From the sequence record MK327934.1: a stretch of DNA of 64,000 bases. One strand, given 5' to 3'. Positions within the stretch are counted from its first letter, which is position 1, and every line of letters starts with the position of its first letter. Made by a program: the position numbers and the translations under genes. Below the pieces are notes generated by a model. The model ran no database searches. It was not told the DNA's origin and was given only the letters and a program-made list of their open reading frames with translations. The stretch is from Escherichia phage vB_EcoM_G2469. Positions 27,957-64,000 of this stretch are shown in pieces.

Positions 27957-28165
27957 TTAGGTTCACCTTCTTTAACGAAATCTGGGTAAGGGTAAAATCC
28001 TGAGTAAAACCCTTCACCTTTATGATTGCTACAACCTTTGTTCGAACAGTAACACCAATAATCAAAATCACAAGCCATTTCGTCATTGCATAAAGCAAAA
28101 ACTACAGGCCATTCGCATTTTTCGCATTTAGCACCTGTAAGAATTTTTGTTTGACTCATAGCCAT
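27953..28165 (-). CDS. hypothetical Cys-rich small protein
   Basis: 70-aa ORF with about 10 Cys (CEKCEWP...CSNKGCSNHKGEGF). Confidence 0.45.
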   Translation of the reverse strand: MAMSQTKILTGAKCEKCEWPVVFALCNDEMACDFDYWCYCSNKGCSNHKGEGFYSGFYPYPDFVKEGEPK

Positions 28166-28383
28166 GTCACCTTTAAGCAGTATTCTTCTACATGCTGTTT
28201 ACGACCTTTCTTATCAATAAAGGTATATTCAACGAATGTTCCGATGTAGTCTTTATCTACATCATGTGGACTATTAATTGGACATTTGGTACGACAAATG
28301 CGTTCCCATTGACGAATAATTACTGCCTTATTCTTTGGATCGTATGGATGTGGATAATGTATATTCATAATAACGGTTCCCAA
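28156..28383 (-). CDS. hypothetical protein
   Basis: 75-aa ORF. Confidence 0.4.
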   Translation of the reverse strand: MGTVIMNIHYPHPYDPKNKAVIIRQWERICRTKCPINSPHDVDKDYIGTFVEYTFIDKKGRKQHVEEYCLKVTWL

Positions 28384-28862
28384 TCAACAATCACAATTTC
28401 TAGTTTAGTAGAATACGTATCTAAAATCTCTTCGATGACATCCCAGTTTCCACCACCAATACCTGCACCAATTCTTGGCATATAAATTACAGGCTTTATT
28501 ATCTTATTCTTTCCGAATTCATTTAATTCTATTATACAATTCATTAAAGCAGAGTACTCAAAATTAGGTCCCGGCTCAAACTGTGTATAAAGATTAAAGC
28601 AATAAGCTTTATGGGTCTTAAAATATTTTTCATAAACCGAATAAGTCCCGAGTTTAGACTTGTCTCCGAATTCGGTTTGAAGTTTATCGGCTTCTAAAAT
28701 TTTTGGATAAGCCTTTGCTAATTGGCCTGCTACACCGGCGCCCATTGTATGAAAACAATTACACCCATGAGCAATATTATTACCTTTAGAAAACAGGGCG
28801 ACAATATCGCCCTTGATATAGTTTTTAATCACTTGCTGCAAGTCCTCTATTATAAGAGTCAA
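28365..28862 (-). CDS. macro-domain-like protein (predicted ADP-ribose binding/hydrolase)
   Basis: 165 aa; motifs IAHGCNCFHTMGAGVAGQLAKAYP and MPRIGAGIGGGNWDVIEEIL resemble macro domain signatures. Confidence 0.5.
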   Translation of the reverse strand: MTLIIEDLQQVIKNYIKGDIVALFSKGNNIAHGCNCFHTMGAGVAGQLAKAYPKILEADKLQTEFGDKSKLGTYSVYEKYFKTHKAYCFNLYTQFEPGPNFEYSALMNCIIELNEFGKNKIIKPVIYMPRIGAGIGGGNWDVIEEILDTYSTKLEIVIVDWEPLL

Positions 28863-30721: not shown

Positions 30722-30935
30722 AAGGAATTTCCTCATCTGTGGCAAGGTCATATTCGACCAATTGGATAGGCTCATTAATACCATATCCACGTACAGTGAT
30801 ATCAGTTGTCGGATAGTTTCCAGTAATATCACCCGTTCTAAATGCTTCAATGAATGATTGCTCGCCTGAGCAACTAAACCAGGCGGCAAAACATTTTAAA
30901 ACATCTTCAGACCCTTCTATAATCAATTTAGCCAT
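30711..30935 (-). CDS. hypothetical protein
   Basis: 74-aa ORF. Confidence 0.45.
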   Translation of the reverse strand: MAKLIIEGSEDVLKCFAAWFSCSGEQSFIEAFRTGDITGNYPTTDITVRGYGINEPIQLVEYDLATDEEIPYVD

Positions 30936-31297
30936 TATAGACTCTCAGTAAAGGTGCGAGCGATAACGTCACGCTGCTGTTCCGGAGTCAGAGAGTTAAA
31001 GCGAACTGCATAACCGGATACACGGATGGTCAGCTGCGGATATTTTTCCGGATGCTTAACTGCATCTTCCAGAGTTTCACGACGCAGAACGTTAACGTTC
31101 AGGTGTTGACCACCTTCAATTTTAACTTTAGGTTGATGTTCAATTTCAATTTCACGGGCATTCAAACCGTAGAAAATTTCCGGGTCTACAATAGCGTCTT
31201 CTTTAAAAGTCTTAGAGACAATAATCCGGGCTTGAGTACCATCTTCAAAATAAATAGTGCCTTTATGTGCACCTTCAAGAATTTGATATGCTTTCAT
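30935..31297 (-). CDS. autonomous glycyl radical cofactor (GrcA/YfiD-like; T4 Y06I-type)
   Basis: 120 aa; C-terminal [62 protein letters not shown] is a glycyl radical domain, near-identical to E. coli GrcA as recalled. Confidence 0.85.
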
Positions 31298-31303
31298 ATA
31301 ACC

Positions 31304-31612
31304 TCAGTTAGAAAATAAATTTATCCAAGTTTTTTCTTTAATCAAAAATGGGTCGGAATTAAACGCCATTAAACTTTGAGTGATTAATCCCTTAAATGGC
31401 CCATCAATAAATTCCATTTTGAAATGCGGAATACTAGTCATCAACCGTGCATTAGGAGCAGTACAAAGAACCTGCTGCCCTGCGAACGGTCCTTTAGTCA
31501 AACGGTATCGTTTAGGTTTAAAATGGTAAATCTCGTAATTTTCTACAAGAGCCATTTTATTGCATACTGGGCTGTTATAACAATATTCAAAAACTTCAAT
31601 AGTGGTCATCAT
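31304..31612 (-). CDS. hypothetical protein
   Basis: 102-aa ORF. Confidence 0.45.
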   Translation of the reverse strand: MMTTIEVFEYCYNSPVCNKMALVENYEIYHFKPKRYRLTKGPFAGQQVLCTAPNARLMTSIPHFKMEFIDGPFKGLITQSLMAFNSDPFLIKEKTWINLFSN

Positions 31613-32148
31613 TGCATTCCAATCACAAAAAATTGAGGACGAGCATTACCGCCGATGCAATATTTGCTTTTGCAACAGTGTTGGACTGTTTTAATATGTA
31701 CATTGTAAATCTTATCCATATCAGGAGCTTTAATAGGCTCGTCAATTATGTACAGAATACGAGAAAGCGTTAATCCACGGAATTTAGAACCTTCATTGCC
31801 AATAAAACTACGAACAGAATCAGTAAATAAACGGAATCGAATATCGTCGCTAGAATAACGAGAAAATTCTTTTTTAATGTTGCCGGCAGAAATTTTAGCA
31901 TAAGCTGAAGTATTAGAAAGAACAATAACTGTTCCACCATCATACAGCCAATTAACAGCAAAATTAGTTACTGCGGTCGATTTACCTGATTGTCTGCCGC
32001 CGTCTAAACGAAGTGTACAGTACTGCTTGAGTACGTCTTCAAATGGTGGGACATAACCGTTCTTACAAATTTCTTCTACTCTAGCATCAGAATGGTGTGT
32101 AAAAGCATTCATCAGGGATAGATAAGGACCAGTTAAAAATGTTCTCAT
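31609..32148 (-). CDS. hypothetical P-loop protein
   Basis: 179-aa ORF with GGRQSGKST Walker A-like motif. Confidence 0.5.
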   Translation of the reverse strand: MRTFLTGPYLSLMNAFTHHSDARVEEICKNGYVPPFEDVLKQYCTLRLDGGRQSGKSTAVTNFAVNWLYDGGTVIVLSNTSAYAKISAGNIKKEFSRYSSDDIRFRLFTDSVRSFIGNEGSKFRGLTLSRILYIIDEPIKAPDMDKIYNVHIKTVQHCCKSKYCIGGNARPQFFVIGMQ

Positions 32149-32261: not shown

Positions 32262-32564
32262 TTATTTACCTTTAATTACTTTAGCTGCTTCGATAGCCGC
32301 TTGCTGAAGGTCATCCATAGACATACCGAATTTAGAAGCAAAGTTATCAATTTTCTTTTCGACAGCATTCAAAGGCTTGGCCTGTTTACCTTCATTAGCG
32401 CCAGGAAGAGCGAGAATACGCTCTTTGTCAATATAAAGGCTTACAAGTTTCTTACGGTCTTTATCGGACAAATCATGAAATGAATGGGCCTTTTTATTTA
32501 TAGCGGCTTCTAATTTACCTGCACTCACTCGCGCTTCAGTAATAAATTCTTGATATGTTTTCAT
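32262..32564 (-). CDS. ipII: internal protein II-like (capsid-targeting sequence MKTYQEFITEA)
   Basis: 100 aa, N-terminal CTS, basic. Confidence 0.6.
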   Translation of the reverse strand: MKTYQEFITEARVSAGKLEAAINKKAHSFHDLSDKDRKKLVSLYIDKERILALPGANEGKQAKPLNAVEKKIDNFASKFGMSMDDLQQAAIEAAKVIKGK

Positions 32565-32605
32565 ATGTTTCCTTTAAATGTAAATAGGTCCGAGTATTAG
32601 CTTTA

Positions 32606-33184
32606 TTAGGAATTACGGGCTGCATTAGCAACGGCGTAAGCGTACTGAACATTAGCGTCTTTAAACGTGCCCTTAGTTGTATCTAGTTCTACCTTAAAAC
32701 CGCCTTTAGCCATAACATCGGCAAATTCTTTACGGAAAGCCATTGCATCAAGACCTTTCCATGATGATTTATGCTTGGCAAATTCAAGACCTGCGAAGTT
32801 GACAGCTTTAGCTAATTTATTATCAATGACCCATTTACCTGCTTTAGGCACAAACTTCGGACCTTTTTGTTTAGAGAACAGTTTTAAATTCCAGCGACGA
32901 AGGTCACTGTCGGCTTTAACAAAAGCTGCGTCTAAGTTACTAGCAACAACATCTTCAATATGAGCAAATTTAAGTCCGTCAACTTCAATATTTAGATCAT
33001 TACGCCAGCGTAGTCCTTCCCAAGCGAAGGCTTTAAAGTCGGAAGCCTTTGTAGCTAAGTACCGTTCAATAGGAGCTGTTTTAGGGTCAAAGCCGTTTCC
33101 GCCACGATAATTCCACTCGTCCTTATTAATGCCTTGAGCTTTTCCTGCAAAGGCTTCGGCGATAAATTCTTTATATGTTTTCAT
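32606..33184 (-). CDS. ipIII: internal protein III-like
   Basis: 192 aa, N-terminal MKTYKEFIAEA. Confidence 0.6.
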   Translation of the reverse strand: MKTYKEFIAEAFAGKAQGINKDEWNYRGGNGFDPKTAPIERYLATKASDFKAFAWEGLRWRNDLNIEVDGLKFAHIEDVVASNLDAAFVKADSDLRRWNLKLFSKQKGPKFVPKAGKWVIDNKLAKAVNFAGLEFAKHKSSWKGLDAMAFRKEFADVMAKGGFKVELDTTKGTFKDANVQYAYAVANAARNS

Positions 33185-33247
33185 TTTTGTTTCCTTGTTT
33201 GTTTTGATAGAGTAATTATACCATATTAATACTTAAGCGTAAACAAT

Positions 33248-33508
33248 TTAAGCTTTACCGCCAGAAATAATTCCGAAGTTGTTAAAATCGTATCCAATAT
33301 CGTCAACATCTACTTTAGGACTTACTACAACATAAGCAATTTCACTACGTTTTGCATAGGTGTTGATTTCTTTACCATCGCCACCTAAGAAAGAATACCC
33401 ATTACGTTTTAATGAGCCAAAGTCTTCGGCATCACCAATGAAAGCTTTAACTTTAAATTTAGGACCTTTGGCATCTGCTTCAGCGATAAATTCTTGATAC
33501 ATTTTCAT
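33248..33508 (-). CDS. internal-protein-like small protein
   Basis: 86 aa, N-terminal MKMYQEFIAEA. Confidence 0.5.
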   Translation of the reverse strand: MKMYQEFIAEADAKGPKFKVKAFIGDAEDFGSLKRNGYSFLGGDGKEINTYAKRSEIAYVVVSPKVDVDDIGYDFNNFGIISGGKA

Positions 33509-49201: not shown

Positions 49202-50934
49202 TGGAAATGATTAGCAGTAGCCTTAATTGGTTCGTGGGTGTTGTCGAGGACAGAATGGACCCATTAAAACAAGGGCGAGTTCGAGTGCGAGTAGTTGGGC
49301 TTCATCCCGCGCAGAGAGTACAAGGCGATGTGCAGGGTATTCCTACAGAAAAACTTCCATGGATGACTGTTATTCAACCTATTACGTCTGCATCAATGTC
49401 AGGTATTGGTGGTTCTGTTACAGGTCCTGTTGAAGGAACTCGAGTATATGGTCATTTCTTAGACAAATGGAAAACAAACGGGATTGTACTTGGTACATAT
49501 GGCGGAATCGTACGTGAAAAGCCTAATAGACTTGAAGGTTTTTCAGACCCGACAGGCCAGTATCCGCGACGTTTAGGTAATGATACGAACGTATTAAACC
49601 AAGGTGGTGAAGCTGGTTATTATTCGAACTCTAACGTAATTCAAGATAACAACTTAGATTATGGTATAAACCCAGACGATACAGATTTAGCAAATATTCC
49701 AGAAGATGATGACCCTAATTTTACAATAACAGAAATGTTACGTCGTGACGAAGGTCTTCGTGATAAAGTGTATTGGGACCATCTCGGGTATCCTACCGTA
49801 GGTATTGGACACCTTATCGTAATGGAAAAGACCCGAGATATGTCTCGAATTAATAAATTGTTATCTGACCAAGTAGGGCGTGAAGTAACAGGAAATCCAG
49901 GGACTATTACATTAGAAGAAGCAACAGCGTTATTTGAGAAAGACCTTGCTAAGATGCAGAAAGACATTCGTTCTAATTCTAAAGTAGGTCCTGTTTATGC
50001 TAAAATGAACAGGTCTCGTCAAATGGCATTAGAAAACATGTGTTTCCAAATGGGCGTTGGTGGTGTAGCAAAATTCAATACTATGCTTAACGCAATGGCC
50101 ATAGGTGATTGGAAAACTGCATACAAATCTGGGCGCGATTCATTATGGTTCCAACAGACTAAAGGACGCGCTTCACGTGTAACAACAATTATTTTAACCG
50201 GTAACATGGAATCATACGGTGTTCCTGTTAAAACACCGCCTTCACCAGGAGTTGGTGCCGATTTAGTTACTAGAAATACCGATCCAGAAGACCCAGCTGG
50301 TCCTCCTGTTCCATTAGATTCACGCATCCTTTTTAAAGAACCTGAATCAAGTTATCGTGGTGAGTATCCATACGTTCATGCTATGGAAACAGAAAGTGGT
50401 CATATCCAAGAATTTGACGATACTCCAGGTAATGAACGTTATCGCTTAGTTCATCCAACAGGGTCATATGAGGAAGTTTCTCCGTCTGGGCGTCGTACTC
50501 GTAAAACTGTAGAAGACCTTTTTGACATCACTAATGGTGATGGGAACTTCTTGATTTCTGGCGATAAGCTTGTTAACGTTGGTGCTAATGAAATATATTA
50601 TAACATGGCAGACCGCCTCCATCAAATAGACGGCAATGACACAATCTTTATTCGTGGTAACCAATCTAAAACTGTTGAAGGCGATGGAACTCTTTACGTT
50701 AAGGGTAATATCAAAATAGTTGTTGATGGAAATGCAGATATTCTTGTTAAAGGTGATGCTAAAACTCAGGTCGAAGGGAATCATGATTACACCGTCAACG
50801 GAAACGTTAAATGGACTGTTAATGGTAATGTTGATATGACTGTTGCCGGTGATTGGGCAGAAACAATGTCTACAATGAGCTCAGTAGCTTCAGGACAATA
50901 CACTGTTGACGGATCTCGTATTGATATCGGGTAA
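49201..50934 (+). CDS. 5: baseplate hub/cell-puncturing protein with tail lysozyme domain gp5
   Basis: 577 aa, MEMISSSLNWFVGVVEDRMDPLKQGRVRVRVVGLHP..., lysozyme-like segment DEGLRDKVYWDHLGYPTVGIGHL, C-terminal repeats. Confidence 0.95.
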   Translation: MEMISSSLNWFVGVVEDRMDPLKQGRVRVRVVGLHPAQRVQGDVQGIPTEKLPWMTVIQPITSASMSGIGGSVTGPVEGTRVYGHFLDKWKTNGIVLGTYGGIVREKPNRLEGFSDPTGQYPRRLGNDTNVLNQGGEAGYYSNSNVIQDNNLDYGINPDDTDLANIPEDDDPNFTITEMLRRDEGLRDKVYWDHLGYPTVGIGHLIVMEKTRDMSRINKLLSDQVGREVTGNPGTITLEEATALFEKDLAKMQKDIRSNSKVGPVYAKMNRSRQMALENMCFQMGVGGVAKFNTMLNAMAIGDWKTAYKSGRDSLWFQQTKGRASRVTTIILTGNMESYGVPVKTPPSPGVGADLVTRNTDPEDPAGPPVPLDSRILFKEPESSYRGEYPYVHAMETESGHIQEFDDTPGNERYRLVHPTGSYEEVSPSGRRTRKTVEDLFDITNGDGNFLISGDKLVNVGANEIYYNMADRLHQIDGNDTIFIRGNQSKTVEGDGTLYVKGNIKIVVDGNADILVKGDAKTQVEGNHDYTVNGNVKWTVNGNVDMTVAGDWAETMSTMSSVASGQYTVDGSRIDIG

Positions 50935-50937
50935 TAT

Positions 50938-51453
50938 ATGGCACAAATACTTCCTTTAAATACCGACTTAGGAGAAGACATGGAAGGGGCGTCTATTGAC
51001 GTCCTTTTTACTCCACAGTTAGAAACAACCGAAACTTTAGTGTCAATAAATATAACAGATTATGAACCGACACAAGGCATTACGGTAGATGGTAATCGTT
51101 TATATGGAACATATGAAAGTGTGTTTAGCTTTTCTTCGGATGCATTGAAATACCGATTAAATGATGATTTTGAAACCGCATCTTCATGGGATGATTTACC
51201 AAAAGATGAATCCACACAGTTATATTTGTGGAGAGCTCCTCAGAATCTTCGTAAAGTGTTTAGTTATACGGTTGAAATGATTTATAACCACCAAGAAGAA
51301 AGTTCATCAGGCGGTTCTAGAAGTGACTCTGGTACAGAACCTCCACCGGCTCCAGTACAAAAAACTCTTACTAAAGTTTATACAAAAACTATAGTAGGAA
51401 ATTGGAGCAAATGGGCTCATCAATTACGAAACTATGTTTATGAGAGGCCGTGA
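50938..51453 (+). CDS. 5.1: baseplate-associated protein gp5.1
   Basis: 171-aa ORF directly after gene 5. Confidence 0.6.
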
Positions 51454-51455
51454 AA

Positions 51456-51749
51456 ATGTCTGGATTAAGTTACGACAAGTGCGTTACAACAGGTCATGAA
51501 GCATGGCCTCCTACTGTAATAAATGCTTCCCAATCTAAAGTGTTCACCGGCGGTATTCCTGTTCTTGTGGCAGGAGACCAAATAACACCTCATACAGAAA
51601 TTAAAAACCCATACGAGACTCATGGAGGTGTTACTGAACCTCGTACATCTAAAGTATACGTCACCGGTAAAAAGGCCGTTCAAATGGCTGACCCAATTTC
51701 ATGCGGGGATACTGTTTCTCAGGCCTCGTCAAAAGTCTTTATCAAATAG
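51456..51749 (+). CDS. 5.4: PAAR-like spike tip protein gp5.4
   Basis: [19 protein letters not shown]...; 97 aa. Confidence 0.75.
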
Positions 51750-51757
51750 GAATTAAA

Positions 51758-53731
51758 ATGGCAAACACTCCTGTAAATTATCAGTTAGTCAGAACAGCGA
51801 ATGCTATTCCCGAGATTTTTATCGGGGGCACATTTGCCGAAATCAAACAGAACATTATTGAATGGCTCAATGGGCAGAATGAATTTCTTGATTATGATTT
51901 TGAAGGTTCGCGTTTAAACGTATTGTGTGACCTTTTAGCATATAACACTCTTTACATCCAACAGTTTAGTAATAGCGCAGTGTATGAAAGTTTTATGCGC
52001 ACTGCAAACTTGCGTAGTTCTGTTGTACAAGCGGCTCAAGATAACGGATATCTGCCTTCATCTAAATCAGCAGCACAAACAGAAATTATGCTCACATGTA
52101 CGGATGCATTAAATAGAAACTATATCACCATTCCACGTGGCACTCGTTTCTTAGCATACGCTAAAGATACTTCTGTTAACCCGTATAACTTTGTTTCTAC
52201 TGAAGATGTCATTGTAGTTAAAGACAAAAATAACCAATATTTTCCACGTCTTCGATTAGCTCAAGGACGTATTGTTCGCACTGAATTAACATTTGATAGA
52301 TTAAAACCTATCATTATTCGTGATAAGAATATTGACCGTAATTTGGTTAAGTTGTATGTTGACGGAGCAGAATGGATTAACTGGACTCGTAAGTCGATGG
52401 TTCACGCTGGTTCTACGTCAACAATCTATTATATGCGTGAAACAGTTGATGGGAACACCGAATTTTATTTTGGTGAAGGCGAAATCTCTATTAACACATC
52501 AGAAGGTGCGTTAACATCTAACTATATTGGTGGCCTTAAACCTGTTCAGGGTTCTAAAATCGTAATTGAGTATATTTCTACTAATGGCGCAGATGCTAAC
52601 GGTGCTGTAGGATTTTCTTATGCTGATACATTAGCTAATATCACGGTAATCGATATTAATGAGAACCCTAGCAATAACCCAGACTTTGTCGGGGCTGATG
52701 GTGGCGGTGACCCTGAAGATATTGAACGTATTCGAGAATTAGGCACAATTAAACGCGAAACTCAACAACGTTGTGTAACCGCTTCCGACTATGACACATT
52801 CGTCTCTGAGCGGTTTGGTTCTATTATTCAAGCGGTTCAAACATTCACAGATTCATCTAAACCAGGGTACGCATATATTGCTGCTAAGCCTAAATCTGGA
52901 TTGTATTTGACTTCTGTTCAACGCGACGACATCAAAAACTATTTAAATGATTATAACTTAGGGACTATTACACCTGTTGTTATTTCGCCTGATTATTTGT
53001 TTATCAAAATGAATATCAAAGTTACATACGCGTTGAATAAACTTCAAGAATCAGAGCAATACCTTGAAGGGCAGATTATTAATAAAATAGACCGTTATTA
53101 TATTGAAGATGTAGAAATTTTTAACTCATCGTTTGCAAAATCTAAAATGCTAACTTATGTCGATGATGCAGATATTTCTATTATTGGTTCTTCGGCTACT
53201 ATTCAAATGGTTCGCGAAGTACAAAACTTTTATAAAACGCCTGAGGCCGGTATTAAATACAATAATCAGATTAAAGATAGATCGATGGAATCTAATATAT
53301 TCTCGTTTGATTCGCACAGACCTAATCCAGAAAATGCAAACGAAACTATTAAATATGGTGTTCGCATAGTATCTTCTGACCGTAATGACCGTGGCATAGG
53401 TCAAGTTATTATTGGTCCATTTGCAGACGGCGATGTTGTTGAAAACGAAAATATACAACCTTATACAGGTAATGATTTTAATAAACTTACTGTTACTGAC
53501 GGACGAAACAAATACTATTCAATTGGTGAAGTGAATTATCCTGCCGATTCGATTTATTGGAACATTGCTAAAATCGACCTCACTTCAGATCGTTTTGAAG
53601 TTCAAACAATTGAACTTTATTCCGACCCTGCAGATGATATTATTTTTACAAAGGATGGTTCTTTAATCGTATTCGAAAATGACTTACGTCCTCAGTACTT
53701 AACTATAGATTTGGAGCCTATTTCACAATGA
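51758..53731 (+). CDS. 6: baseplate wedge protein gp6
   Basis: Start MANTPVNYQLV after an AGGA RBS; about 658 aa. Confidence 0.9.
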   Translation: MANTPVNYQLVRTANAIPEIFIGGTFAEIKQNIIEWLNGQNEFLDYDFEGSRLNVLCDLLAYNTLYIQQFSNSAVYESFMRTANLRSSVVQAAQDNGYLPSSKSAAQTEIMLTCTDALNRNYITIPRGTRFLAYAKDTSVNPYNFVSTEDVIVVKDKNNQYFPRLRLAQGRIVRTELTFDRLKPIIIRDKNIDRNLVKLYVDGAEWINWTRKSMVHAGSTSTIYYMRETVDGNTEFYFGEGEISINTSEGALTSNYIGGLKPVQGSKIVIEYISTNGADANGAVGFSYADTLANITVIDINENPSNNPDFVGADGGGDPEDIERIRELGTIKRETQQRCVTASDYDTFVSERFGSIIQAVQTFTDSSKPGYAYIAAKPKSGLYLTSVQRDDIKNYLNDYNLGTITPVVISPDYLFIKMNIKVTYALNKLQESEQYLEGQIINKIDRYYIEDVEIFNSSFAKSKMLTYVDDADISIIGSSATIQMVREVQNFYKTPEAGIKYNNQIKDRSMESNIFSFDSHRPNPENANETIKYGVRIVSSDRNDRGIGQVIIGPFADGDVVENENIQPYTGNDFNKLTVTDGRNKYYSIGEVNYPADSIYWNIAKIDLTSDRFEVQTIELYSDPADDIIFTKDGSLIVFENDLRPQYLTIDLEPISQ

Positions 53732-56700
53732 CAGTAAAAGCGCCAGCAGTCACAAGTCTCAGAATATCCAAGTTGTCCGCTAACCAAGTTCAAATACGCT
53801 GGGATGACGTTGGTGCTAATTTCTACTATTTCGTAGAAATCGCTGAGACTAAAACGGCAGACGGGGGAATAATTCCCCCTGCCAGCTACAGATGGATAAA
53901 TTTAGGATATACTCCTAATAGCAACTGGTTCGAAAGTAGCTTAGACCCATTAACTTCTTATATTATTCGTGTATCAACTGCCGCCGAAGGCTTCGAGAGA
54001 TCTGATTGGGTATATACCGAAATATTTGAATCATTTCAGACTAACGCGTATACATTTCAACATATGATTGAAATGCAATTGGCTAACACTTTTATTAGAG
54101 AAAAATTTACAAATAACAACATGGCTTATGTCGATTTTAATAACGACACTATAATGGCAGCTCTAATGAATGAATCGTTCCAATTTAGCCCTGCTTATGC
54201 GGATATTTCATCTATTAAAAATTTCATTATTGGCGAAAATGAGTATCATGAAATTCAAGGTTCGATTCAACAGGTGTGTCATGATATAAACCGTGTTTAT
54301 TTGATGGAATCCGAAGGAATTCTTTATTTGTTTGAACGGTATCAGCCTGTGGTTAAAGTCTCTAATGATAAGGGACAAACCTGGAAATCGGTTAAATTGT
54401 TTAATGACCGTGTAGGGTACCCTGTATCAAGAACAGTGTATTACCAGACAGGTTATACCACGTATGTTCTTGGGTATGATAAATTATTTTACGGCCGTAA
54501 ATCAACTGACGTTCGTTGGTCTGCTGATGATGTGAGATTTAGTTCCCAAGATATAACATTTGCTAAAATCGGCGACCAGTTAAATTTAGGATATGATGTA
54601 GAAATATTTGGTAACTATGCATCATTACCTGCTAACGTATCACGTATTGCAGAAGCTATCGTTTGCAATGACGATTATGTATACGTTGCTGCTCGAGATA
54701 AAGTTCGTTTTATTAAAACTAGTAATGCCCCTATCGATTCAGACCCGTTATCTCCGACATATTCCGAACGTTTGTTTGAACAAGAAACATTTAACATCAC
54801 AGGTAACCCTAAGGCAGTTTGTTATAAAATGGATTCTGTCGGTGGTAAAATATTTGCACTGATTATCGGTGAAGTTGTTAATCTTAACGATGACCCGAGG
54901 ACCACTCCTATTGTTGATTCTGCTGATAAGGGTGTTTACGTTCTAGACCATGATGCTGGCACATTTAAACGTGTGTTTGGTAATACTGAAGAAGAACGTC
55001 GTCGTATTGAACCTGGGTACACCAGTATGTCTACTGATGGTGTTGAGTTATCTATTTCATCTAGTAATTTTAAATTTCTAGAATCTGATATTGTTGATGA
55101 CCCAAAAACACAAATCAAGTACGGTTTAATCGGTGCTGTTAAATATGAGTATCCTAGTGAATGGCTGGCTGATAAACATTATCATATGATGGCATTTATT
55201 TCAACTGAAGACTCTCAATGGGAATCGTTCACTCCCCAACCAATGGAATACTATGCTGAGCCATTCTTTAGTTATTCTAGAAAGTCTGGTACTCGTTGTT
55301 GGATTAATAACTCAGACAAAGCCGTTGTAATTTATTCTGATTTACTTTACACTAAGGTTATTGAGAATCATCCACTTAGTTCTTTAGACCGTGAAGTTCA
55401 TGAATATTGGAAGGATGGCGACTGTACAATAGTGATGCCTAACGTAGATTTCACCGGATTTAAAAAATATGCATCCGGCATGATTTTCTATAAATCATCA
55501 GGTGAGATTATTTCTTATTATGATTTTAGTTATCGTGTTAGAGATAATGTTTCTATAATTTGGAAGCCTACTAATATATTCTTAACAGCATCGTTACAAA
55601 ACCAAGAAAAAGATACCACATGGACTCCTGTAGAAGAGAACGGCATTGCGGACCCAGATTTACGACCATTGCTCACTACAATGATGCCGGAGTCTTATCT
55701 TTTAGATAATACAAACTTCGAAGCATTCTGCGAGGCTTATATTCAGTATCTTTCTGACGGCTATGGGACCCATTATAACAACCTTTTAAATCTTATTAAA
55801 AATCAATATCCGCGCGAAGAACATGCGTGGGAATACTTATGGTCTGAGATTTATAAACGAAACATTTACTTAAACGCCGAAAAACGCGATTTAGTGTCTC
55901 GTTTCTTTGAATCAAGAAGTTATGACTTCTATTCAACTAAAGGAACTGAAGCATCATATAAATTCTTGTTTAAAGTGCTTTATAACGAAGATGTTGAAAT
56001 TGAAATTGAATCTAGTTCCGGGACCGAATATGATATCATCATTGAATCTGATTCGTTGACAGAAGATTTGGTCGGACAAACCATATATACCGCGACAGGA
56101 CGTTGTAATGTGACGTATATCGAGAGAAGTTACTCTAAAGGTAAATTACAATGGACTGTAACAATTCACAACCTTTTAGGACGTTTAATCCAAGGTCAAG
56201 AAGTTAAAGCTGAAAGACTCCCGGGTTTTGAAGGTGAAATTGTTCGTGGTATTAAAGGTAAAGAGCTTTCTCAGAACAACATCGATTACATAAATCGTGG
56301 TAGAGCATACTACGTAATGAAGATTAAATCTAAACTTCCATCATCTCGTTGGAAATCAGACGTATTACGTTTTGTTCATCCGGTTGGATTTGGATTTATC
56401 GCAATTACCCTTCTCACAATGTTTATTAACACCGGATTAACACTTAAACATGTTGAAACCATTATTAATAAATACAAAAACTATAAGTGGGATTCTGGAT
56501 TACCGACTAAATATGCAGACCGAGTGGCTAAATTAGACCCACAAGGAAATGTTGAGTTTAACCCTATTACAGGTGAAGCGATATACGAAATAGGCCCTAT
56601 GGCTGGTCAAGATTATCCATTGCCTGAAGATTATAACGCTGAAAACAATAACTCCATATTTCAAGGTCAACTTCCATCGGAACGACGTAAACTGATGAGC

Positions 56701-56826
56701 CCATTATTTGATGCGTCCGGAACAACATTCTCTAGATTTAGAGATTTGGTTGAACAACGGTTAATCGATAATGTAGGAAATCCAAGAGACCCCGTGAATC
56801 CACCACAGGTTAAATTAGATGAATGA
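53728..56826 (+). CDS. 7: baseplate wedge initiator gp7
   Basis: 1032-aa ORF, same length and position as T4 gp7. Confidence 0.9.
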   Translation: MTVKAPAVTSLRISKLSANQVQIRWDDVGANFYYFVEIAETKTADGGIIPPASYRWINLGYTPNSNWFESSLDPLTSYIIRVSTAAEGFERSDWVYTEIFESFQTNAYTFQHMIEMQLANTFIREKFTNNNMAYVDFNNDTIMAALMNESFQFSPAYADISSIKNFIIGENEYHEIQGSIQQVCHDINRVYLMESEGILYLFERYQPVVKVSNDKGQTWKSVKLFNDRVGYPVSRTVYYQTGYTTYVLGYDKLFYGRKSTDVRWSADDVRFSSQDITFAKIGDQLNLGYDVEIFGNYASLPANVSRIAEAIVCNDDYVYVAARDKVRFIKTSNAPIDSDPLSPTYSERLFEQETFNITGNPKAVCYKMDSVGGKIFALIIGEVVNLNDDPRTTPIVDSADKGVYVLDHDAGTFKRVFGNTEEERRRIEPGYTSMSTDGVELSISSSNFKFLESDIVDDPKTQIKYGLIGAVKYEYPSEWLADKHYHMMAFISTEDSQWESFTPQPMEYYAEPFFSYSRKSGTRCWINNSDKAVVIYSDLLYTKVIENHPLSSLDREVHEYWKDGDCTIVMPNVDFTGFKKYASGMIFYKSSGEIISYYDFSYRVRDNVSIIWKPTNIFLTASLQNQEKDTTWTPVEENGIADPDLRPLLTTMMPESYLLDNTNFEAFCEAYIQYLSDGYGTHYNNLLNLIKNQYPREEHAWEYLWSEIYKRNIYLNAEKRDLVSRFFESRSYDFYSTKGTEASYKFLFKVLYNEDVEIEIESSSGTEYDIIIESDSLTEDLVGQTIYTATGRCNVTYIERSYSKGKLQWTVTIHNLLGRLIQGQEVKAERLPGFEGEIVRGIKGKELSQNNIDYINRGRAYYVMKIKSKLPSSRWKSDVLRFVHPVGFGFIAITLLTMFINTGLTLKHVETIINKYKNYKWDSGLPTKYADRVAKLDPQGNVEFNPITGEAIYEIGPMAGQDYPLPEDYNAENNNSIFQGQLPSERRKLMSPLFDASGTTFSRFRDLVEQRLIDNVGNPRDPVNPPQVKLDE

Positions 56827-57823
56827 TTCAAGTGTTATCTATCGTGCAATAGTTACATCAAAATTTAGAACAGAAAAAATGCTGAATTTTTATAATTCAG
56901 TTGGGGATGGAGATGATAAGAACTCCATTTATATTACGTTTGGACGTTCAGAGCCTTGGGCGTCAAATGAAAATGAGGTGGGCTTCGCCCCACCTTATCC
57001 TACAGATTCTGTTCTTGGTGTTACTGATATGTGGACCCATATGATGGGCACCGTTAAAGTTTTACCTTCAATGTTAGATTCTGTTATTCCTAGACGTGAT
57101 TGGGGAGATGTGCGATATCCAGACCCTTACACGTTTAGAATTAACGATATAGTCGCATGTAATACTGCTCCGTACAACGCGACAGAAGTTGGAGCCGGTT
57201 GGTTAATTTACCGTTGTTTAGATGTCCCTGACGTAGGGCTCTGTTCAATAGAATCTTTAGATAATAAAGATGAATGTCTTAAATTGGGTGGTAAATGGAC
57301 TCCGTCTGTTCGTTCTATGTCTCCTCCTGAAGGCAGAGGCGATGCTAATGGGGTTATCGAAACCGGTGATGGATATATTTGGGAATATCTTTATGAGATT
57401 CCTGCCGATGTGTCAATTAACCGTTGCACTAACGAATATCTTGTAGTTCCATGGCCGGAAGAAATTAAAGAAGACCCTACGCGTTGGGGATACGAAAATA
57501 ACTTAACTTGGCAACAAGATGACTATGGCTTGATTTATCGTGTTAAAGCTAATACGATGCGGTTTAAAGCATATTTTGATTCTGTTTATTTCCCTGAGGC
57601 AGCTTTGCCTGGTAACAAGGGTTTTAGACAGATATCAATTATCGCAAACCCGTTAGAAGCTAAGAAAAATCCAAATGACCTTAATGTTAAAGCAGAAAAG
57701 GATTATTACGACCCTAGAGACCTGCAACGTCATTCTGGTGAAATGATTTATATGGAAAACCGACCACCTGTTATTATGGCAATGGACCAAACAGAAGAAA
57801 TTAACATTTTGTTTATGTTTTAA
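56819..57823 (+). CDS. 8: baseplate wedge protein gp8
   Basis: 334-aa ORF, as T4 gp8. Confidence 0.9.
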   Translation: MNDSSVIYRAIVTSKFRTEKMLNFYNSVGDGDDKNSIYITFGRSEPWASNENEVGFAPPYPTDSVLGVTDMWTHMMGTVKVLPSMLDSVIPRRDWGDVRYPDPYTFRINDIVACNTAPYNATEVGAGWLIYRCLDVPDVGLCSIESLDNKDECLKLGGKWTPSVRSMSPPEGRGDANGVIETGDGYIWEYLYEIPADVSINRCTNEYLVVPWPEEIKEDPTRWGYENNLTWQQDDYGLIYRVKANTMRFKAYFDSVYFPEAALPGNKGFRQISIIANPLEAKKNPNDLNVKAEKDYYDPRDLQRHSGEMIYMENRPPVIMAMDQTEEINILFMF

Positions 57824-57826
57824 TTA

Positions 57827-57850
57827 GGGAGCCTTCGGGCTCCCAATTTT
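57827..57850 (+). terminator. intrinsic terminator after gene 8
   Basis: gggagccttcgggctccc (7-bp stem, UUCG loop) followed by aattttg. Confidence 0.65.
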
Positions 57851-57853
57851 GTA
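57846..57853 (+). promoter_or_regulatory. T4-type late promoter TATAAATA for gene 9
   Basis: Exact TATAAATA about 43 nt upstream of ATG 57896. Confidence 0.6.
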
Positions 57854-57895
57854 TCTATAAATAGAATATAATATCGGACAACAAAAGGCAGAATT

Positions 57896-58768
57896 ATGGC
57901 ATTTTTTAAGCAAACTCCTAAACAATTAATCGATACTGGCGAAATTGGTAATGCCTCAACAGGTGATATCTTATTCGACGGTGGTAATAAAATAAATGAC
58001 GATATCAACGCTATTTACAATGCATTTGGCGATCAACGTAAAATGGCCGTAGCAGATGGAACCGGACCTACAGGTCAAACTATTCATGCCACAGGATATT
58101 ATCAAAAAGGAAAGGCTGTTGATTATCAAACTCCTATTAAACCCGGCACCATGCATGATATTGATGCTTCTGATGGTGGTGTGATTGTTATTATTGACCG
58201 TCCTGAATTAGGTGACTCGGTAGAATTCATAAACTCTAATGGGTCTATTTCTGTTAACAATCCTTTAAGTATCCAAGTAACTGATGGTTCAATTAAAGGT
58301 GTTCTTAATAATCTTGTTATTTCCACCCCTTATACCCATGTTGTTCTTCGTTGTGTTGAACTTAATGGGCCGACTTCAGTATGGAATTATTCTACTGATA
58401 GCATGTTTGGGCAGAAAGAATCTCCTGTCGATGGAACTTGGAGTCTTACAGGAAACACAGTTTCTATTCCTCTGTTTTATCGCACGGATTATAACATGGC
58501 TAAATTGCTTGTTACATGCCAATCCGCTGACGGTAGAAAAATAAAAACATGCGAAATAAATATTCTAATAGATACAATTAACTCAGAAGTTCTTTCTACC
58601 GAATTTGCAGTAATGCGAGTTGGTAATGTAGATGAAACCGACGAGATTGCTAATATTAGCTTTAGTATTATTAACAACTTTGCTACTATGACGATTACAT
58701 CAGATATTATTGGATTACGTGCAGCAGTTAAAATTATCTCAACTCAGAAAATTGGGGTCGCTCAATAA
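57896..58768 (+). CDS. 9: baseplate wedge / long tail fiber socket protein gp9
   Basis: 290-aa ORF, as T4 gp9. Confidence 0.9.
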   Translation: MAFFKQTPKQLIDTGEIGNASTGDILFDGGNKINDDINAIYNAFGDQRKMAVADGTGPTGQTIHATGYYQKGKAVDYQTPIKPGTMHDIDASDGGVIVIIDRPELGDSVEFINSNGSISVNNPLSIQVTDGSIKGVLNNLVISTPYTHVVLRCVELNGPTSVWNYSTDSMFGQKESPVDGTWSLTGNTVSIPLFYRTDYNMAKLLVTCQSADGRKIKTCEINILIDTINSEVLSTEFAVMRVGNVDETDEIANISFSIINNFATMTITSDIIGLRAAVKIISTQKIGVAQ

Positions 58769-60573
58769 TGAAACAAAATATTAAAATTGGTAACGTCGTT
58801 GATGACGGACAAGGCGATTACCTTCGTCGAGGTGGTGAAAAGATAAATGAGAACTTTGACGAAATCTATTATGAATTAGGTGATGGTGAAGTTCCTTATG
58901 CCGCTGGCGCATGGAAGACTTATGATGCGGCTGATGGTCTTAATCTTAAGGCTGCTTGGGGTAAATCTTATGCAATTAATACTACTTCTGGACGGGTTTC
59001 GGTAAATCTTCCTAAAGGGACAATTGCAGACTATAATAAAGTTATTCGTGCTCGTGACGTATTTGCAACTTGGAACATTAACCCTGTTACTTTAATTCCG
59101 GCAAACGGAGACACGATTAAAGGTTCTTCATCTCCGGTAGAAATTAACGTTCAGTTCTCTGATTTAGAATTAGTTTATTGTGCTCCTGGACGTTGGGAAT
59201 ACATCAAGAACAAACAAATTGACAAAATAGTTAGCTCTGACATTAGTAACGTTGCTCGTAGAGAATATCTGGTTGAAACCCAAGGTCAGACCGATTTCAT
59301 GGATGTTTTTAATGGAACCTCTTATAACGTTAACAACATTCGCGTAAAACATCGTGGCAACGAATTGTATTATGGCGATGTATTCAGTGATAATAGTGAT
59401 TTTGGTTCTCCAGGCGCTAATCCTGGTGAACTGGTTGCACTTGATGGATTTAATATTAGATTACGCCAACCATGTAATGTTGGGGACACTGTACAAATTG
59501 AGACATTCCTAGATGGTGTTTCTCAGTGGCGTAGTTCATATACTCGTCGCCAAGTTCGCATTTTAGATAGTAAATTGACTGCTAAAAAGTCTATTGATGG
59601 AAGTATTTACGTCACTGATTTGAGTACGTTCCGGTCTATTCCATTTACAGCATTTGGTATTAATCCTACAGAACCACCTAACCCGAATTCGTTAGAAGTT
59701 CGCTTCAATGGTATTCTCCAAGAATTAGCTGGTACTGTTGGAACTCCTATTTTCCGTTGTGAAGGTGTGGATGCTGATTCTGAAGAGTCATGCGCTAATC
59801 TCGGTGGGACATGGACCCAATCGTATACAGATTATGCGATTGAATATACTGATAATATCCCTAGCGCAATTCTGTTTGACCGTCAATTTGAAGACCAAGA
59901 CATTATTACCATCACATGGTTTAATAACGATTTAGGAACTCTTCTTGAAATGGAAGAAATCCTTGATGTCGCTGATGAGAAATATGTTTCTCAAGGGTCT
60001 AACATTGAAATTACTGGTGACGTTGCATTAACCGATTTCGATAAAATTGGATGGCCTAATGTAGAACCTGTTCCTAAGTATGAACGTGAATTCTCGACTA
60101 TCTCAGCAATATTTGATACAATTTATCCTGTTGGGACTATTTACGAAAATGCGGTTAACCCTAATAATCCGGCCACTTATTTAGGTTTTGGTTCGTGGAA
60201 AATTTGGGGACAAGGCAAAGTATTAGCAGGTTGGAATGACGACGCGTCGGATCCTAATTTTGCATTAAATAATAATGACCTTGACGTCAATGGTAACCCT
60301 ACTCATACCGCAGGTGGTACTGTTGGTGTAACAACCGTCACATTAGAAAATGCTGATTTACCGGCTACACAAACCGATGAAAAGGTTCTTATTTCTGATG
60401 ATAATGGTACAGTAATTATAGGCGGTTGCCAATATGACCCGGATGAAGAAGGTCCTATTTACACTAAATATCGTGAAGACCATGCAAAGACTAACGGATC
60501 TCATGTTCCAGCGCGTTCTATAACTAATATTCAGCCATCTATAACTGTATACCGTTGGGTAAGGATTGCATAA
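58768..60573 (+). CDS. 10: baseplate wedge protein gp10
   Basis: 601-aa ORF, as T4 gp10. Confidence 0.9.
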
Positions 60574-61232
60574 TGACTGTACTTAATACAAAGGCGGGAG
60601 TTATTTCCCGTCATGCTGATTTTTTGAATTACAGAAAAAATCCAGCTCAAATTGATGTTTTAAACAACCAAGCTGTAGGTTCCGTGACTATTTCTCAGTT
60701 AGCTCGTGGTTTTTATGACGCTAACGTAGAATCTGCAATAAATGATGTCCATAATATGGCACGAGCCGATATTGGTACTGTTGTCACAAACACTTCAGGC
60801 GTATCGCCTGAAGGTACAGCACAAGTTGATTATTGGACTTTTTCTGGTGATGTTCTCGACGATACTTTGGCCCCTGGAACGCCGGTCGTTATTAACGTAT
60901 TTGGACTTGCTGTTAAAGCAACAATCGGTATGACTGATAACGAATTAACGGCACAAGTTCGTATAGCTTTACAAGAAGCCATTGCTAATCAAATCGCTAT
61001 TTCTTCTTATAAAGACCATCCATCCGAAGGTAATAAACTTCAGGTGACATATTTAGATAACCAACGTCATGTGTTGCCAACATATGCTTCGTTTGGTGTA
61101 ACAATTTCGCAAGAAATTTTGTCTGAAGCAAAATCCGGATACGGAACATGGAATTTATTGGGTGCCCAAACGGTTACTCTTGATAACCATGATACTCCTA
61201 CCGTTTTCTACCACTTTGTGAGAGCCTCATGA
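60573..61232 (+). CDS. 11: baseplate wedge / short tail fiber attachment protein gp11
   Basis: Start MTVLNTKAG overlapping the gene 10 stop; 219 aa. Confidence 0.85.
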
Positions 61233-62812
61233 GTAATAACAATACATACCAACACGTTTCAAATGAATCTATTTACGTTGAATTCGACCCTACGGGGTCG
61301 AATTTTCCAGACACAGTCACTAATGTCCAAGCCGCATTAGCTGCCATTTCTCCTTCAGGTGTTAATGGCGTACCGGAAGCAACAACTACTACACCTGGAA
61401 TTATTCAAATAGCTACTCCACAAGAAGTTATTGATGGATTAGATAATAGTAAAGCTGTTACTCCAGCATCACTGAATGCTCGTCTACAATATCCTAATGC
61501 AACCGAAACTCAATATGGCTTAACTCGTTATGCTACTGAAGATGAAGCAGTAACAGGAACTATTGACGATGCATCAATTACTCCGCTTAAATTGAATCAA
61601 AAAATAGACGATGTATTTCAGACAAAAGTGTCAACAGAAGCAACAAATGGTGTAATTAAAATTTCAACTTCTGCTGCGGCATTAGCCGGTTCTGACGATA
61701 CAACGGCAATGACCCCGTTAAAAACGCAACAATTAGCAATTAAACTTATTTCGCAAATTGCTCCAAATAATAGTGACGCCACCGAATCTATTACCGGTGT
61801 TGTTCGTTTGGCTACAGTTGCTCAAGCGCAACAAGGCACCCTGCGTGAAGGCTATGCAATTTCACCTTATACCTTTATGAATTCAGTAGCATCAGAAACT
61901 AATAAAGGTGTCGTTAAACTAGGGACACAGACAGAAGTAAATAGTAACAACTCTTCAGTTGTAGTGACCGGCGCAACATTAAACGGACGTGGTGCTACAA
62001 CTTCTTTACGTGGAGTTGTTCGTTTAACTACACAAGTGGGTAGCCAATCAGGCGGTGATGGTTCTTCTGCCCTTGCTTGGAATGCTGATGTTATCCACCA
62101 ACGAGGCGGCCAAACTATTAATGGCACGCTTCGCATTAATAATACGTTGACGGTTGGTTCTGGTGGTGCTAATATAACTGGTAATGTCAATATGACTGGT
62201 GGTTATATTCAAGGCAATCGTATTGTGACTCAAAACGAATTAGACCGAATTCTTCCAGTTGGCGCTATTACAATGTGGGCTGCAGATAGTTTACCGAGTT
62301 CTGATTGGCGCTTCTGTCATGGCGGGACCGTTTCTGCTTCAGAATGTCCGGTATATGCTTCCAGAATTGGGACACGATATGGCGGTAGTTCTTCTAACCC
62401 GGGCTTGCCTGATATGCGTGGATTATTTGTTCGTGGCTCAGGTCGTGGCTCTCACTTAACAAATCCAAATGTTAATGGTAATGACCAGTTTGGTAAGCCT
62501 AGATTAGGTGTAGGTTGTACTGGTGGATATGTTGGTGAAGTACAGAAACAACAGATGTCTTATCATAAACACGCTGGCGGATTTGGTGAGCATGATGATT
62601 CTGGAGCATTCGGTAATACCCGTAGATCAAATTTTGTTGGTACACGTAAAGGACTTGACTGGGATAACCGTTCATACTTCACCAATGACGGATATGAAAT
62701 TGACCCGGCATCACAACGAAATTCCAAATATACATTAAATCGTCCTGAATTAATTGGAAATGAAACACGTCCGTGGAACATTTCTTTAAACTATATCATT
62801 AAGGTAAAATAA
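61229..62812 (+). CDS. 12: short tail fiber protein gp12
   Basis: 527-aa ORF, as T4 gp12. Confidence 0.9.
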
Positions 62813-64000
62813 TGGCTGATATAACTCTGGTAGATTTACCATATGTTGACGGCCCGCCAGACGCGGGTCAGAGTCGTATTGAATGGATTAAAAACGATGA
62901 AGAAATAACAGGTGCTGACACAAAATACGGTTCTGAAGGTGTAATGAACCGCCCTATTGTTGAAGTTCAACGTAACGTAGAAGCGTTAGATGTTAATATT
63001 AAAACTATAGCATCTTCTTTGAATACGGCCAATGAAGATATCAAAGCTATTCAAGGTATTTTAGATGTTTCTGGGGACGTTGATGCTCTTGCACAGATAG
63101 GCCAGAACACCCAAGATATTGATGTCATTAAAGTCACAGTTCAAACCCATGCTAGTGAATTGAATGATTTGAATGAACATATTGATGCGAATACTGATGA
63201 TATTGGTGTTTATAATCAGGAAACAGATTCAGTTTATAGAACGGTTCGTAACGACCTGCTTTGGATTAAAAACGAATTAGGACAATATACTGGCCAAGAT
63301 ATTAATGGGGTTCCTACTCCAGGAAATGATAGCACTGGTATGAAACGCCGTATTATGACTAATAGCTCCGTAATTGTTGACCATGGTGTTCGATTAACTG
63401 ATTTAGAAACTAAATTTGCTGATTCTGACGTCGGCTCTTTAACTATTGAAGTCGAACACTTGCGCGAAGAAATGGGGCCTCGTACTTCTTTCACTACTCC
63501 AGTGTTTAGTCGTCTTTCCAGTATTGATTTAACTTTGTCGCGTCAAAATGCTGACTTGGATGGCATTAAACAGTCTATTGGGTATCCTAATACGACTTCT
63601 ATTATTACTACAACTAATGCGAATAGTTCAGCAATAAACGACATTAATCTTGAGCTCAATCAATCCGGTGGTATTAAACCTCGTTTGACTACAGTAGAAA
63701 CTGCCATTGGCGCTGATGATTTGCCTACTACAATCCAAGGACGTATTAAACTCAATACTGATGCTATCGGAGCATTGAACACTGTTGTCGGCTCTGATTC
63801 TTCGTCAGGATTGCGTTTTAATGTGTCATGGTTAAATAACGTAGTTGGTGTTGACGCTTCAGGTGGGAAACCGGAACCAGACGGCTCTTTGCTTTATCGT
63901 ACTCGAGAGCTCGAAGGAACTATCGGTGGGCTGAGTAATGACATTCAGAACATTCAAACCGATGTTGGGACTAATTCCACAGGAATTAAGGGTTCTGTAA
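62812..64000 (+). CDS. wac: fibritin (whisker antigen control) Wac, N-terminal part (continues beyond window end)
   Basis: From ATG 62812: [43 protein letters not shown]..., matches T4 fibritin N-terminus; open to window end. Confidence 0.9.
   Translation, partial: MADITLVDLPYVDGPPDAGQSRIEWIKNDEEITGADTKYGSEGVMNRPIVEVQRNVEALDVNIKTIASSLNTANEDIKAIQGILDVSGDVDALAQIGQNTQDIDVIKVTVQTHASELNDLNEHIDANTDDIGVYNQETDSVYRTVRNDLLWIKNELGQYTGQDINGVPTPGNDSTGMKRRIMTNSSVIVDHGVRLTDLETKFADSDVGSLTIEVEHLREEMGPRTSFTTPVFSRLSSIDLTLSRQNADLDGIKQSIGYPNTTSIITTTNANSSAINDINLELNQSGGIKPRLTTVETAIGADDLPTTIQGRIKLNTDAIGALNTVVGSDSSSGLRFNVSWLNNVVGVDASGGKPEPDGSLLYRTRELEGTIGGLSNDIQNIQTDVGTNSTGIKGSV

Follow-up and report, generated by a model that had tools for sequence, protein, structure and literature searches.

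A tract identical to Escherichia coli grcA in the vs.6 (Y06I) glycyl radical cofactor gene of Escherichia phage vB_EcoM_G2469 and its probable origin by gene conversion

The gene at positions 30935-31297 (minus strand) of a 64,000-nucleotide stretch of Escherichia phage vB_EcoM_G2469 (MK327934.1; the whole stretch is called the window below) encodes a small glycyl radical protein. An earlier note on this DNA had described it as a glycyl-radical cofactor gene whose last ~60 residues are near-identical to E. coli GrcA (YfiD) and whose N-terminal half is phage-specific. Recent acquisition from the host and strong constraint were both offered there as the cause. The locus raises the question of which of the two applies, and to which part of the gene. 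Comparison at the nucleotide level indicates that the gene is very probably a Y06I-type cofactor gene whose domain-coding half was overwritten by host grcA through gene conversion. A mosaic structure, donor specificity, independent events, and changes that are all or nearly all synonymous were observed.

The Two Halves of the Gene

The open reading frame (ORF), its two halves, and the tract shared with E. coli are as follows.

30935-31297, minus strand: vs.6 / Y06I ortholog, 120 amino acids (aa) plus stop, ATG to TAA, from the ORF list
31118-31297, minus strand: 5' half, codons 1-60, of phage lineage and AT-rich, probably homologous to the disordered GrcA N-half although diverged; GC 34%, GC content at third codon positions (GC3) 0.22
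30938-31117, minus strand: 3' half, codons 61-120, which encodes the glycyl radical domain and matches GrcA at 60/60 aa; GC 49%, GC3 0.41
30972-31119, minus strand: putative host-derived gene-conversion tract, gene nucleotides (nt) 179-326, 148 nt, 148/148 identical to E. coli grcA
30938-30971, minus strand: right edge of the tract, the third base of codon 109 and then codons 110-120, 34 nt, with five synonymous differences from E. coli grcA

The 120-aa ORF matches Pfam Gly_radical at residues 60-101 (E=2e-18), which bears out the glycyl-radical cofactor gene of the earlier note. In the global alignment with E. coli GrcA (WP_000627804, locus L001), residues 61-120 correspond to residues 68-127 of GrcA and are identical at 60 of 60 positions, and the near-identity claimed for the last ~60 residues stands. 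The peptide quoted in the note began with RVEGG, as E. coli GrcA reads at this place, whereas the phage protein has KIEGG; exact identity runs from E61 onward.

The N-terminal halves are strongly diverged. BLASTP of this pair of proteins finds 35% identity over 40 aa (E=3e-6), and hidden Markov model (HMM) alignments to YfiD and to TIGR04365 begin at phage residue 18-21. The 5' half is common to the homologs in Jiaoda-, Slopek-, Pseudoteven-, and Karamviruses and is found in phages of Klebsiella, Enterobacter, Citrobacter, and Cronobacter. It appears to represent an old phage lineage of a diverged, weakly GrcA-like N-half. The description of this half as phage-specific is correct as to its strong divergence and its phage lineage, but the half is probably not unrelated to GrcA. 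At the junction of the two halves, GC3 rises from 0.22 to 0.41.

The 148-nt Tract Identical to E. coli grcA

The exact run comprises codons 61-108 and two bases of codon 60. Identity to E. coli grcA collapses 5' of codon 61, and all five synonymous differences between the window and E. coli grcA are in the last 12 codons. The earlier note had named an alignment with only distant similarity to GrcA as the outcome that would speak against it; such distant similarity was not found, with 60/60 aa and 148/148 nt identical, far more than chance would give.

The donor is specific. The bacterial grcA set consisted of 80 species plus E. coli and Cronobacter. In the first 144 nt of its domain, the window departs from E. 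coli at no site, from Escherichia sp. at 2, from Citrobacter at 12, and from Salmonella at 27. For the full 180 nt, the 82 bacterial grcA genes have a median difference of 29. Non-optimal codons are also in common with E. coli grcA (CAA64, AAG81, CAT82, TAT86, TAT96, GTA93, and TTT100).

By megablast, many E. coli genomes contain the tract at 100% identity, and 5,220 of 5,432 records contain it at 99% or more. It is the sole match of the 64-kb window among 5,426 E. coli genomes. Separate megablast searches of positions 1-25000 and 50001-64000 for other host-identical stretches found no match in these 5,426 genomes. The genes pflB and tdcE were considered as donors and rejected, the tract being ~80% identical to pflB. 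The tract matches a median of 2-3 places per E. coli genome (grcA, pflB, and tdcE-type genes), but in one genome it matches 21-22. Amplification, engineering, or assembly could be the cause in that genome.

Age and Direction of the Transfer

In the 5' half, the window and T4 are separated by a synonymous divergence (dS) of 0.35 (10.5 synonymous differences over 37.7 sites) and a nonsynonymous divergence (dN) of 0.055. In the 148-nt tract there is no synonymous difference, and the sole change is R73H in T4. The identity between T4 and the window is 98-99% in the tract, which forms a local peak, and 70-80% in the flanking genes. Compared with the diverged 5' half and flanks, the tract is therefore younger than the divergence of Tequatrovirus and Mosigvirus at this locus. 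The divergence between tract and donor is less than roughly 0.08 (Poisson bound, 0 changes in ~36 synonymous sites). The divergence within Escherichia, 0.05-0.07, is on a comparable scale.

The direction is very probably from host to phage, because the 3' half of E. coli grcA has its normal place in the bacterial tree with a dS like that of its own 5' half, and because the 5' half of the phage gene is common to phages of Klebsiella, Enterobacter, Citrobacter, and Cronobacter. The comparison with E. coli grcA, proposed in the earlier note for dating the transfer, was run; the exact tract of 148 nt places the transfer after the split of Tequatrovirus and Mosigvirus. As for the choice between recent acquisition and constraint, both are supported for the 3' half; a recent host origin applies to this half and not to the whole gene.

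Two side observations concern the comparison with T4. Codon 73 is CAT (His) in T4 (NC_000866) but CGT (Arg) in E. coli grcA and in the other T-even sequences of the comparison. Further short islands of 98-99% identity to T4, amid 70-80%, are at 28154-28400 and 32058-32147 of the window. Neither matches E. coli, and they are typical T-even mosaicism by phage-phage recombination.

Distribution of the Tract among E. coli Phages

The E. coli tract is present at 99% or more identity in 431 phage records and at 95-99% in 211. The sampled carriers are all of Tequatrovirus or Mosigvirus types, and some of them were isolated on Shigella, Yersinia, Citrobacter, or Salmonella. The vs.6 ortholog of the window shows 99.7% nucleotide identity to that of Mosigvirus vB_EcoM_G53 and 93-94% to Tequatrovirus vs.6. 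T4 Vs.6 (NP_049730) shares with the window protein its length of 120 aa, 112 of 120 residues, the locus, the mosaic structure, and the left junction. It differs at 8 aa, seven of them in the N-half, the other being H73, where the window and E. coli have R73. Its E. coli-identical DNA reaches codon 118, compared with codon 108 in the window.

All Tequatrovirus and Mosigvirus sequences examined have one and the same left junction, AAA ATT / GAA GGT. The right end varies. The E. coli-identical runs are 125-173 nt long in most sequences and 71 nt in L105. The last three codons are GAG AGT CTA in Mosigvirus-type sequences, including the window and G53. Tequatrovirus has GAG AGT TTG or GAA AGT TTG there, and E. 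coli has GAA AGC CTG. Three private variants of the tract, seen in IMG/VR phages, coincide with segregating bacterial alleles (C>T at the third position of codon 65, T>C at that of codon 73, and C>A at that of codon 94). This suggests more than one donor allele.

In Escherichia phage vB_Eco_Some (OZ034686; locus L097, 301-800), there is a 79-nt tandem duplication within the host-identical tract of vs.6. The sequence 'CCATCCGTGTATCC...ACCTT' occurs twice, and the annotated coding sequence is longer and frameshifted. The duplication could be real or an assembly error.

Independent Case in Klebsiella Phages

Klebsiella grcA genes were obtained from metagenome contigs searched with Klebsiella-type GrcA and identified by exact protein look-up. 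In total, 162 bacterial grcA tails were compared with all phage tails. Klebsiella phage KPV15 (KY000080, IMG/VR locus L126) has a 140-nt exact run with the bacterial loci L180-L182, whose protein is exactly GRCA_KLEP7, the GrcA of K. pneumoniae. A second Klebsiella allele, L183, encodes the same protein as L182 and has 15 synonymous differences from it over the gene.

The 5' halves of the Jiaodaviruses are 0-6 nt apart, yet their tracts are of different kinds.

KPV15, 15882-6-5, and KPN6: tract of the L182 allele
17-11: tract with all six synonymous variants of the second allele, L183
OU509536 and AM_K2: tracts that are mixtures of the L182 and L183 alleles
KpV477: tract 16 nt from the L182 allele, assigned to neither allele
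Roth17 and PKO111: tracts 21-23 nt from the L182 allele, unconverted

In Jiaodaviruses, too, the left edge is at codon 61, and the last codons specific to the phages, ACA GAG GCA CTA, are kept. The K. pneumoniae tract is found at 95% or more identity in 115 phage records. Judged from the alleles, at least three events of host-to-phage overwriting probably took place at this locus, with two groups of phages and three donor alleles involved. The independence of events is clear in Jiaodaviruses, and the E. coli phages alone are only suggestive of it.

Two records deserve separate mention. In the 5' half of KPV15 vs.6, a T-run is one base short relative to its relatives, which causes a frameshift; the record contains either a pseudogene or a homopolymer sequencing error. 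Its 3' tract is closest to K. pneumoniae grcA. The 19-kb contig IMGVR_UViG_2706794630_000006 (L128) has a GrcA-like tail 16/180 nt from Yersinia artesiana grcA, much nearer than the majority of phage homologs are to a bacterial grcA. The contig could be a piece of bacterial DNA in IMG/VR, or its tail a further case of conversion.

Phage Lineages without the Tract

No host-identical tract was found in the Krisch-, Slopek-, Pseudoteven-, Karamviruses, T5-like, or jumbo phages compared. The distance to any sampled grcA is 30-50 nt for Krischviruses on E. coli, for T5-like phages, and for most other lineages, the longest exact runs being 17-56 nt. The Krischviruses Phi1 and MIZ4, which infect E. 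coli, are at least 34 nt from any sampled grcA. The Slopek-, Pseudoteven-, and Karamviruses and the T5-like phages are 25-50 nt from any of the 162 bacterial tails. Tracking of the host in every lineage was considered and rejected, given Cronobacter phage leE (34/180 nt from Cronobacter grcA) and the other unconverted lineages.

Proposed Mechanism

Purifying selection on the 60-aa domain would hold the DNA of unconverted phages and hosts ~85-90% alike, with exact runs of 20-40 nt; in the comparison of tails, unconverted phage alleles are ~87-90% identical to host grcA, and their exact runs are ~30-40 nt long. Such similarity may suffice for the phage recombination system to take fragments of host DNA as donors during infection. 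T4 recombination involves UvsX/UvsY and 46/47, and recombination between T4 and plasmids is used in T4 genetics. The limits of the tract would be those of homology, the left one where the conserved domain starts (codon 60/61) and the right one near the stop codon; in the window, the right edge lies near codon 109. Conversions would leave the encoded residues unchanged; being silent or nearly so for this reason, they would persist. They may be neutral or mildly favourable, through host-matched codons or through an exact fit to host PflA/PflB at the few differing residues.

Alternative Explanations

The same 60-aa domain is invariant or nearly so across Enterobacterales, and its DNA differs at 12-33 of 144 sites. 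It is identical in E. coli, Serratia, Edwardsiella, Pectobacterium, Erwinia, Cronobacter, and several phage genera. The dS from E. coli is 0.36 for Citrobacter, 0.72 for Klebsiella, 0.72 for Serratia, 1.0 for Salmonella, and 1.4 for Yersinia, with dN ~0. This is what favours purifying selection alone, acting on an anciently acquired gene. Constraint acts on amino acids, however. In other pairs with an identical protein, such as E. coli and Serratia (dS 0.72), the synonymous sites are saturated, whereas none of the ~36 synonymous sites differs between the window and E. coli. The leE gene and Cronobacter grcA, with 0 aa and 34/180 nt differences, seem to show what pure protein-level constraint leaves. 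Constraint alone is insufficient because these two domains are identical in aa and yet so far apart in DNA. Selection is refuted as the sole explanation and is given next to no weight in that role. Nor is convergent codon usage in highly expressed genes any more probable. Many of the common codons are indeed those preferred by E. coli (CTG, CGT, GGT, AAC, and CCG), but convergence is excluded because non-preferred codons are common to phage and E. coli as well (CAA, AAG, CAT, TAT twice, GTA, TTT, and GAT). Under similar codon bias, the grcA genes of Citrobacter and Salmonella still differ at 12 and 27 of 144 sites, the Krischviruses and T5-like phages that infect E. coli do not converge, and the Klebsiella phages match two Klebsiella alleles at the synonymous variants specific to each. 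Identity alone gives no direction, and the 3' halves of E. coli and Klebsiella grcA might have been overwritten from phages instead. This is very improbable, since the E. coli 3' half is placed normally (with Escherichia sp., then Citrobacter, then the rest) and has a dS like its own 5' half, the tract has a host-like composition inside an AT-rich phage gene, and near-identical phage 5' halves are paired with different bacterial alleles. The least probable explanation is an artefact in which host reads entered chimeric phage assemblies. Host DNA is present in phage lysates, but the T4 reference genome has the tract with in-frame junctions, 642 independent phage records carry it at 95% or more identity, and it occurs also in IMG/VR contigs and keeps lineage-specific 3' ends.

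A single transfer into the Tequatrovirus/Mosigvirus pool, spread by phage-phage recombination and without recurrence in E. coli phages, is a possibility to be taken seriously, although not the expected one. The left junction is the same throughout both genera, the T-even mosaics hold other islands of 98-99% identity between T4 and the window, and the isolates from Yersinia, Citrobacter, and Salmonella keep the E. coli tract. On the other hand, the right ends differ among close relatives (125-173 nt, and 71 nt in L105), the three private variants are segregating bacterial alleles, and the Klebsiella phages show repeated events with different donors at the locus. Recurrence, too, would give a common left junction, as this is where homology stops. 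That vs.6 is a hot spot of recurrent host-to-phage gene conversion, and that this recurrence has not been described before, are taken together slightly favoured.

Several points weigh against host-to-phage conversion or its recurrence. The Krischviruses on E. coli are unconverted. The early degradation of host DNA by T4 should limit the donors. Tequatroviruses from Yersinia, Salmonella, and Citrobacter keep the E. coli tract; therefore, conversion is not fast relative to host switching in the laboratory. With the shared left junction, one event followed by phage-phage spread fits the E. coli phages equally well. The three allele coincidences could be parallel synonymous mutations (rough estimate p ~0.02-0.05). 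The phage protein scores 159.1 bits against the NCBIfam GrcA equivalog TIGR04365, under its 170-bit cutoff, compared with 233.9 bits for E. coli GrcA; the score is low because the N-half is diverged. Finally, the role of vs.6 in infection is inferred, and its origin is drawn from sequence comparison.

If conversion is recurrent, the tract would record the host species or lineage of recent growth, E. coli in Tequatrovirus and Mosigvirus and two alleles of the K. pneumoniae complex in Jiaodavirus. It would also offer a ready assay of host-phage recombination in phages thought to be nearly closed to exchange with the host genome.

Protein Family and Function

Membership was tested in the family of the autonomous glycyl radical cofactor GrcA/YfiD (TIGR04365, IPR011140). 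The phage protein fits the build of this family, which is small and stand-alone with little beyond the C-terminal glycyl radical domain. Phage residues 18-120 align to positions 23-126 of the TIGR04365 model, residues 21-120 align with the YfiD structure 6OWR (E=2e-42), and residues 57-120 align with PflB 696-759. The PHROG family phrog_1209, annotated as 'unknown function', is matched over the full length (residues 1-120 to profile 1-121, E=9.1e-63). The predicted radical site is located as follows.

31013-31015, minus strand: codon GGT of Gly95 in the RVSGYAV motif, predicted radical site, corresponding to GrcA G102 and PflB G734, from the codon table and the PflB alignment

G734 of PflB is the radical site and the O2 cleavage site of pyruvate formate-lyase (PFL) (PMC8683613). 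According to the account of Wagner et al. 2001 given in PMC8683613, PFL activase radicalises both E. coli YfiD and T4 Y06I, and the ~14-kDa YfiD or Y06I acts as a 'spare part' that forms a complex with O2-cleaved PFL and restores its activity. YfiD and Y06I are the only two spare-part proteins validated biochemically (PMC8683613). In YfiD, residues 1-60 are disordered and help the binding and activation of cleaved PFL (cPFL), and residues 61-127 are structured and duplicate PflB 693-759 (PMC8683613).

With ~93% aa identity to T4 Y06I, the gene and its probable function are already known. By analogy with the T4 ortholog, for which this was seen in vitro, host PFL activase (PflA) would put the radical on Gly95. 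The C-terminal domain would stand in for the piece of PflB lost on O2 cleavage at G734, and PFL activity would return. The supply of fermentative acetyl-CoA and ATP might in this way be sustained during infection in the micro-oxic gut. The repair of oxygen-damaged PFL, suggested at first from the sequence, agrees with the in vitro results for Y06I as related in PMC8683613 and is not new. The finding as first written is correct and ordinary; it concerns a known, annotated, and biochemically characterised gene.

Comparison with Known Systems

E. coli GrcA (YfiD; P68066; PDB 6OWR; TIGR04365) shares with the phage protein the C-terminal domain (60/60 aa), 148 nt of DNA, and the RVSGYAV loop. In each of these two small stand-alone proteins, a PflB-like domain comes after an N-half that is diverged or disordered. 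The phage protein is 7 residues shorter, and its N-half is ~35% identical over 40 aa. The phage gene is in a lytic early-gene cluster, whereas E. coli grcA is at a chromosomal locus, which is regulated by FNR/ArcA.

The small stand-alone Gly_radical proteins of T5-like phages (Tequintavirus) and of jumbo Klebsiella phages are similar in length (~120-122 aa, starting with MKAYQ or MTIKAKQ). Their domains differ from host GrcA by ~10 aa and at least 45/180 nt, without a host-identical tract.

Intragenic recombination between host and phage was reportedly described by Zeidner in 2005 and by Sullivan in 2006 for the photosynthesis genes psbA/psbD of cyanophages. There too, a host-derived, strongly constrained metabolic gene in T4-like phages is said to carry patches of host alleles, which imply repeated host-phage gene conversion. 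The vs.6 case differs in its hosts and its pathway, and its tract is limited to one domain, the other half being without usable homology. The phages also differ, as these are T-evens, in which host DNA is degraded and cytosine is modified.

In the literature searched, outside which key older T4 papers lie, the work on function was found but no description of the nucleotide identity or gene conversion of vs.6, which is not proof that it is unpublished. The main text of a T4 omics paper does not mention vs.6. The tract answers the question of dating, with an age below the Tequatrovirus-Mosigvirus split and a donor divergence on the within-Escherichia scale. It suggests that lytic T-even-type phages still gain host chromosomal DNA by homologous recombination where constraint keeps homology. 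The pair vs.6/grcA may serve as a simple natural system to measure host-to-phage recombination.

There is also a practical aspect. In a 2026 phage-typing study, grcA was picked as a Straboviridae marker gene for the design of primers for polymerase chain reaction (PCR) and quantitative PCR (PMC12845203). With up to 148-173 nt identical, primers in the conserved 3' half could also match the E. coli chromosome. Reads from the tract may likewise be misassigned in pipelines for read mapping or decontamination.

Gene Neighbourhood

The ORF at 30935-31297 is real and, by its sequence and place, is the Mosigvirus-type ortholog of T4 vs.6 (Y06I). T4 vs.6 is located at 63557-63919 of NC_000866 (NP_049730) and is annotated 'autonomous glycyl radical cofactor GrcA'. 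As in T4, the ortholog is on the same strand and between the homologs of vs.5 and vs.7 in the regB-denV early region. The neighbours are in T4 order, with homologs of vs, vs.1, regB, vs.3-vs.5, vs.7, vs.8, and denV, as determined from the ORF order compared with T4, the annotation of G53, and collinear BLAST blocks.

31302-31305, minus strand: Shine-Dalgarno sequence GAGG, 4 nt 5' of the ATG of the vs.6 ortholog, read from the sequence

The gene is a member of a densely packed minus-strand cluster. The stop codon of the upstream ORF, the vs.7 homolog, overlaps the GAGG, and the stop codon of the vs.6 ortholog overlaps the start of the vs.5 homolog (TAATG). A consensus scan of the region for a promoter or terminator of the vs.6 ortholog found nothing beyond shuffled expectation. 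The gene appears to be transcribed by read-through from upstream.

Two neighbouring regions gave additional observations. The vs.8 homolog (31609-32148, minus strand, 179 aa) matches its own PHROG and, weakly, the large terminase phrog_2 (E=1e-5, profile positions 279-371). The match hints at a P-loop ATPase-like fold. At 32262-33508 on the minus strand, three consecutive ORFs (100, 192, and 86 aa) each start with MK(T/M)YQEFI(T/A)EA. We take this shared start to resemble the N-terminal capsid-targeting sequence of the T4 internal proteins IPII/IPIII. This region shows 91-94% identity to the ipII/ipIII area of T4, and its neighbours show 70-80%.

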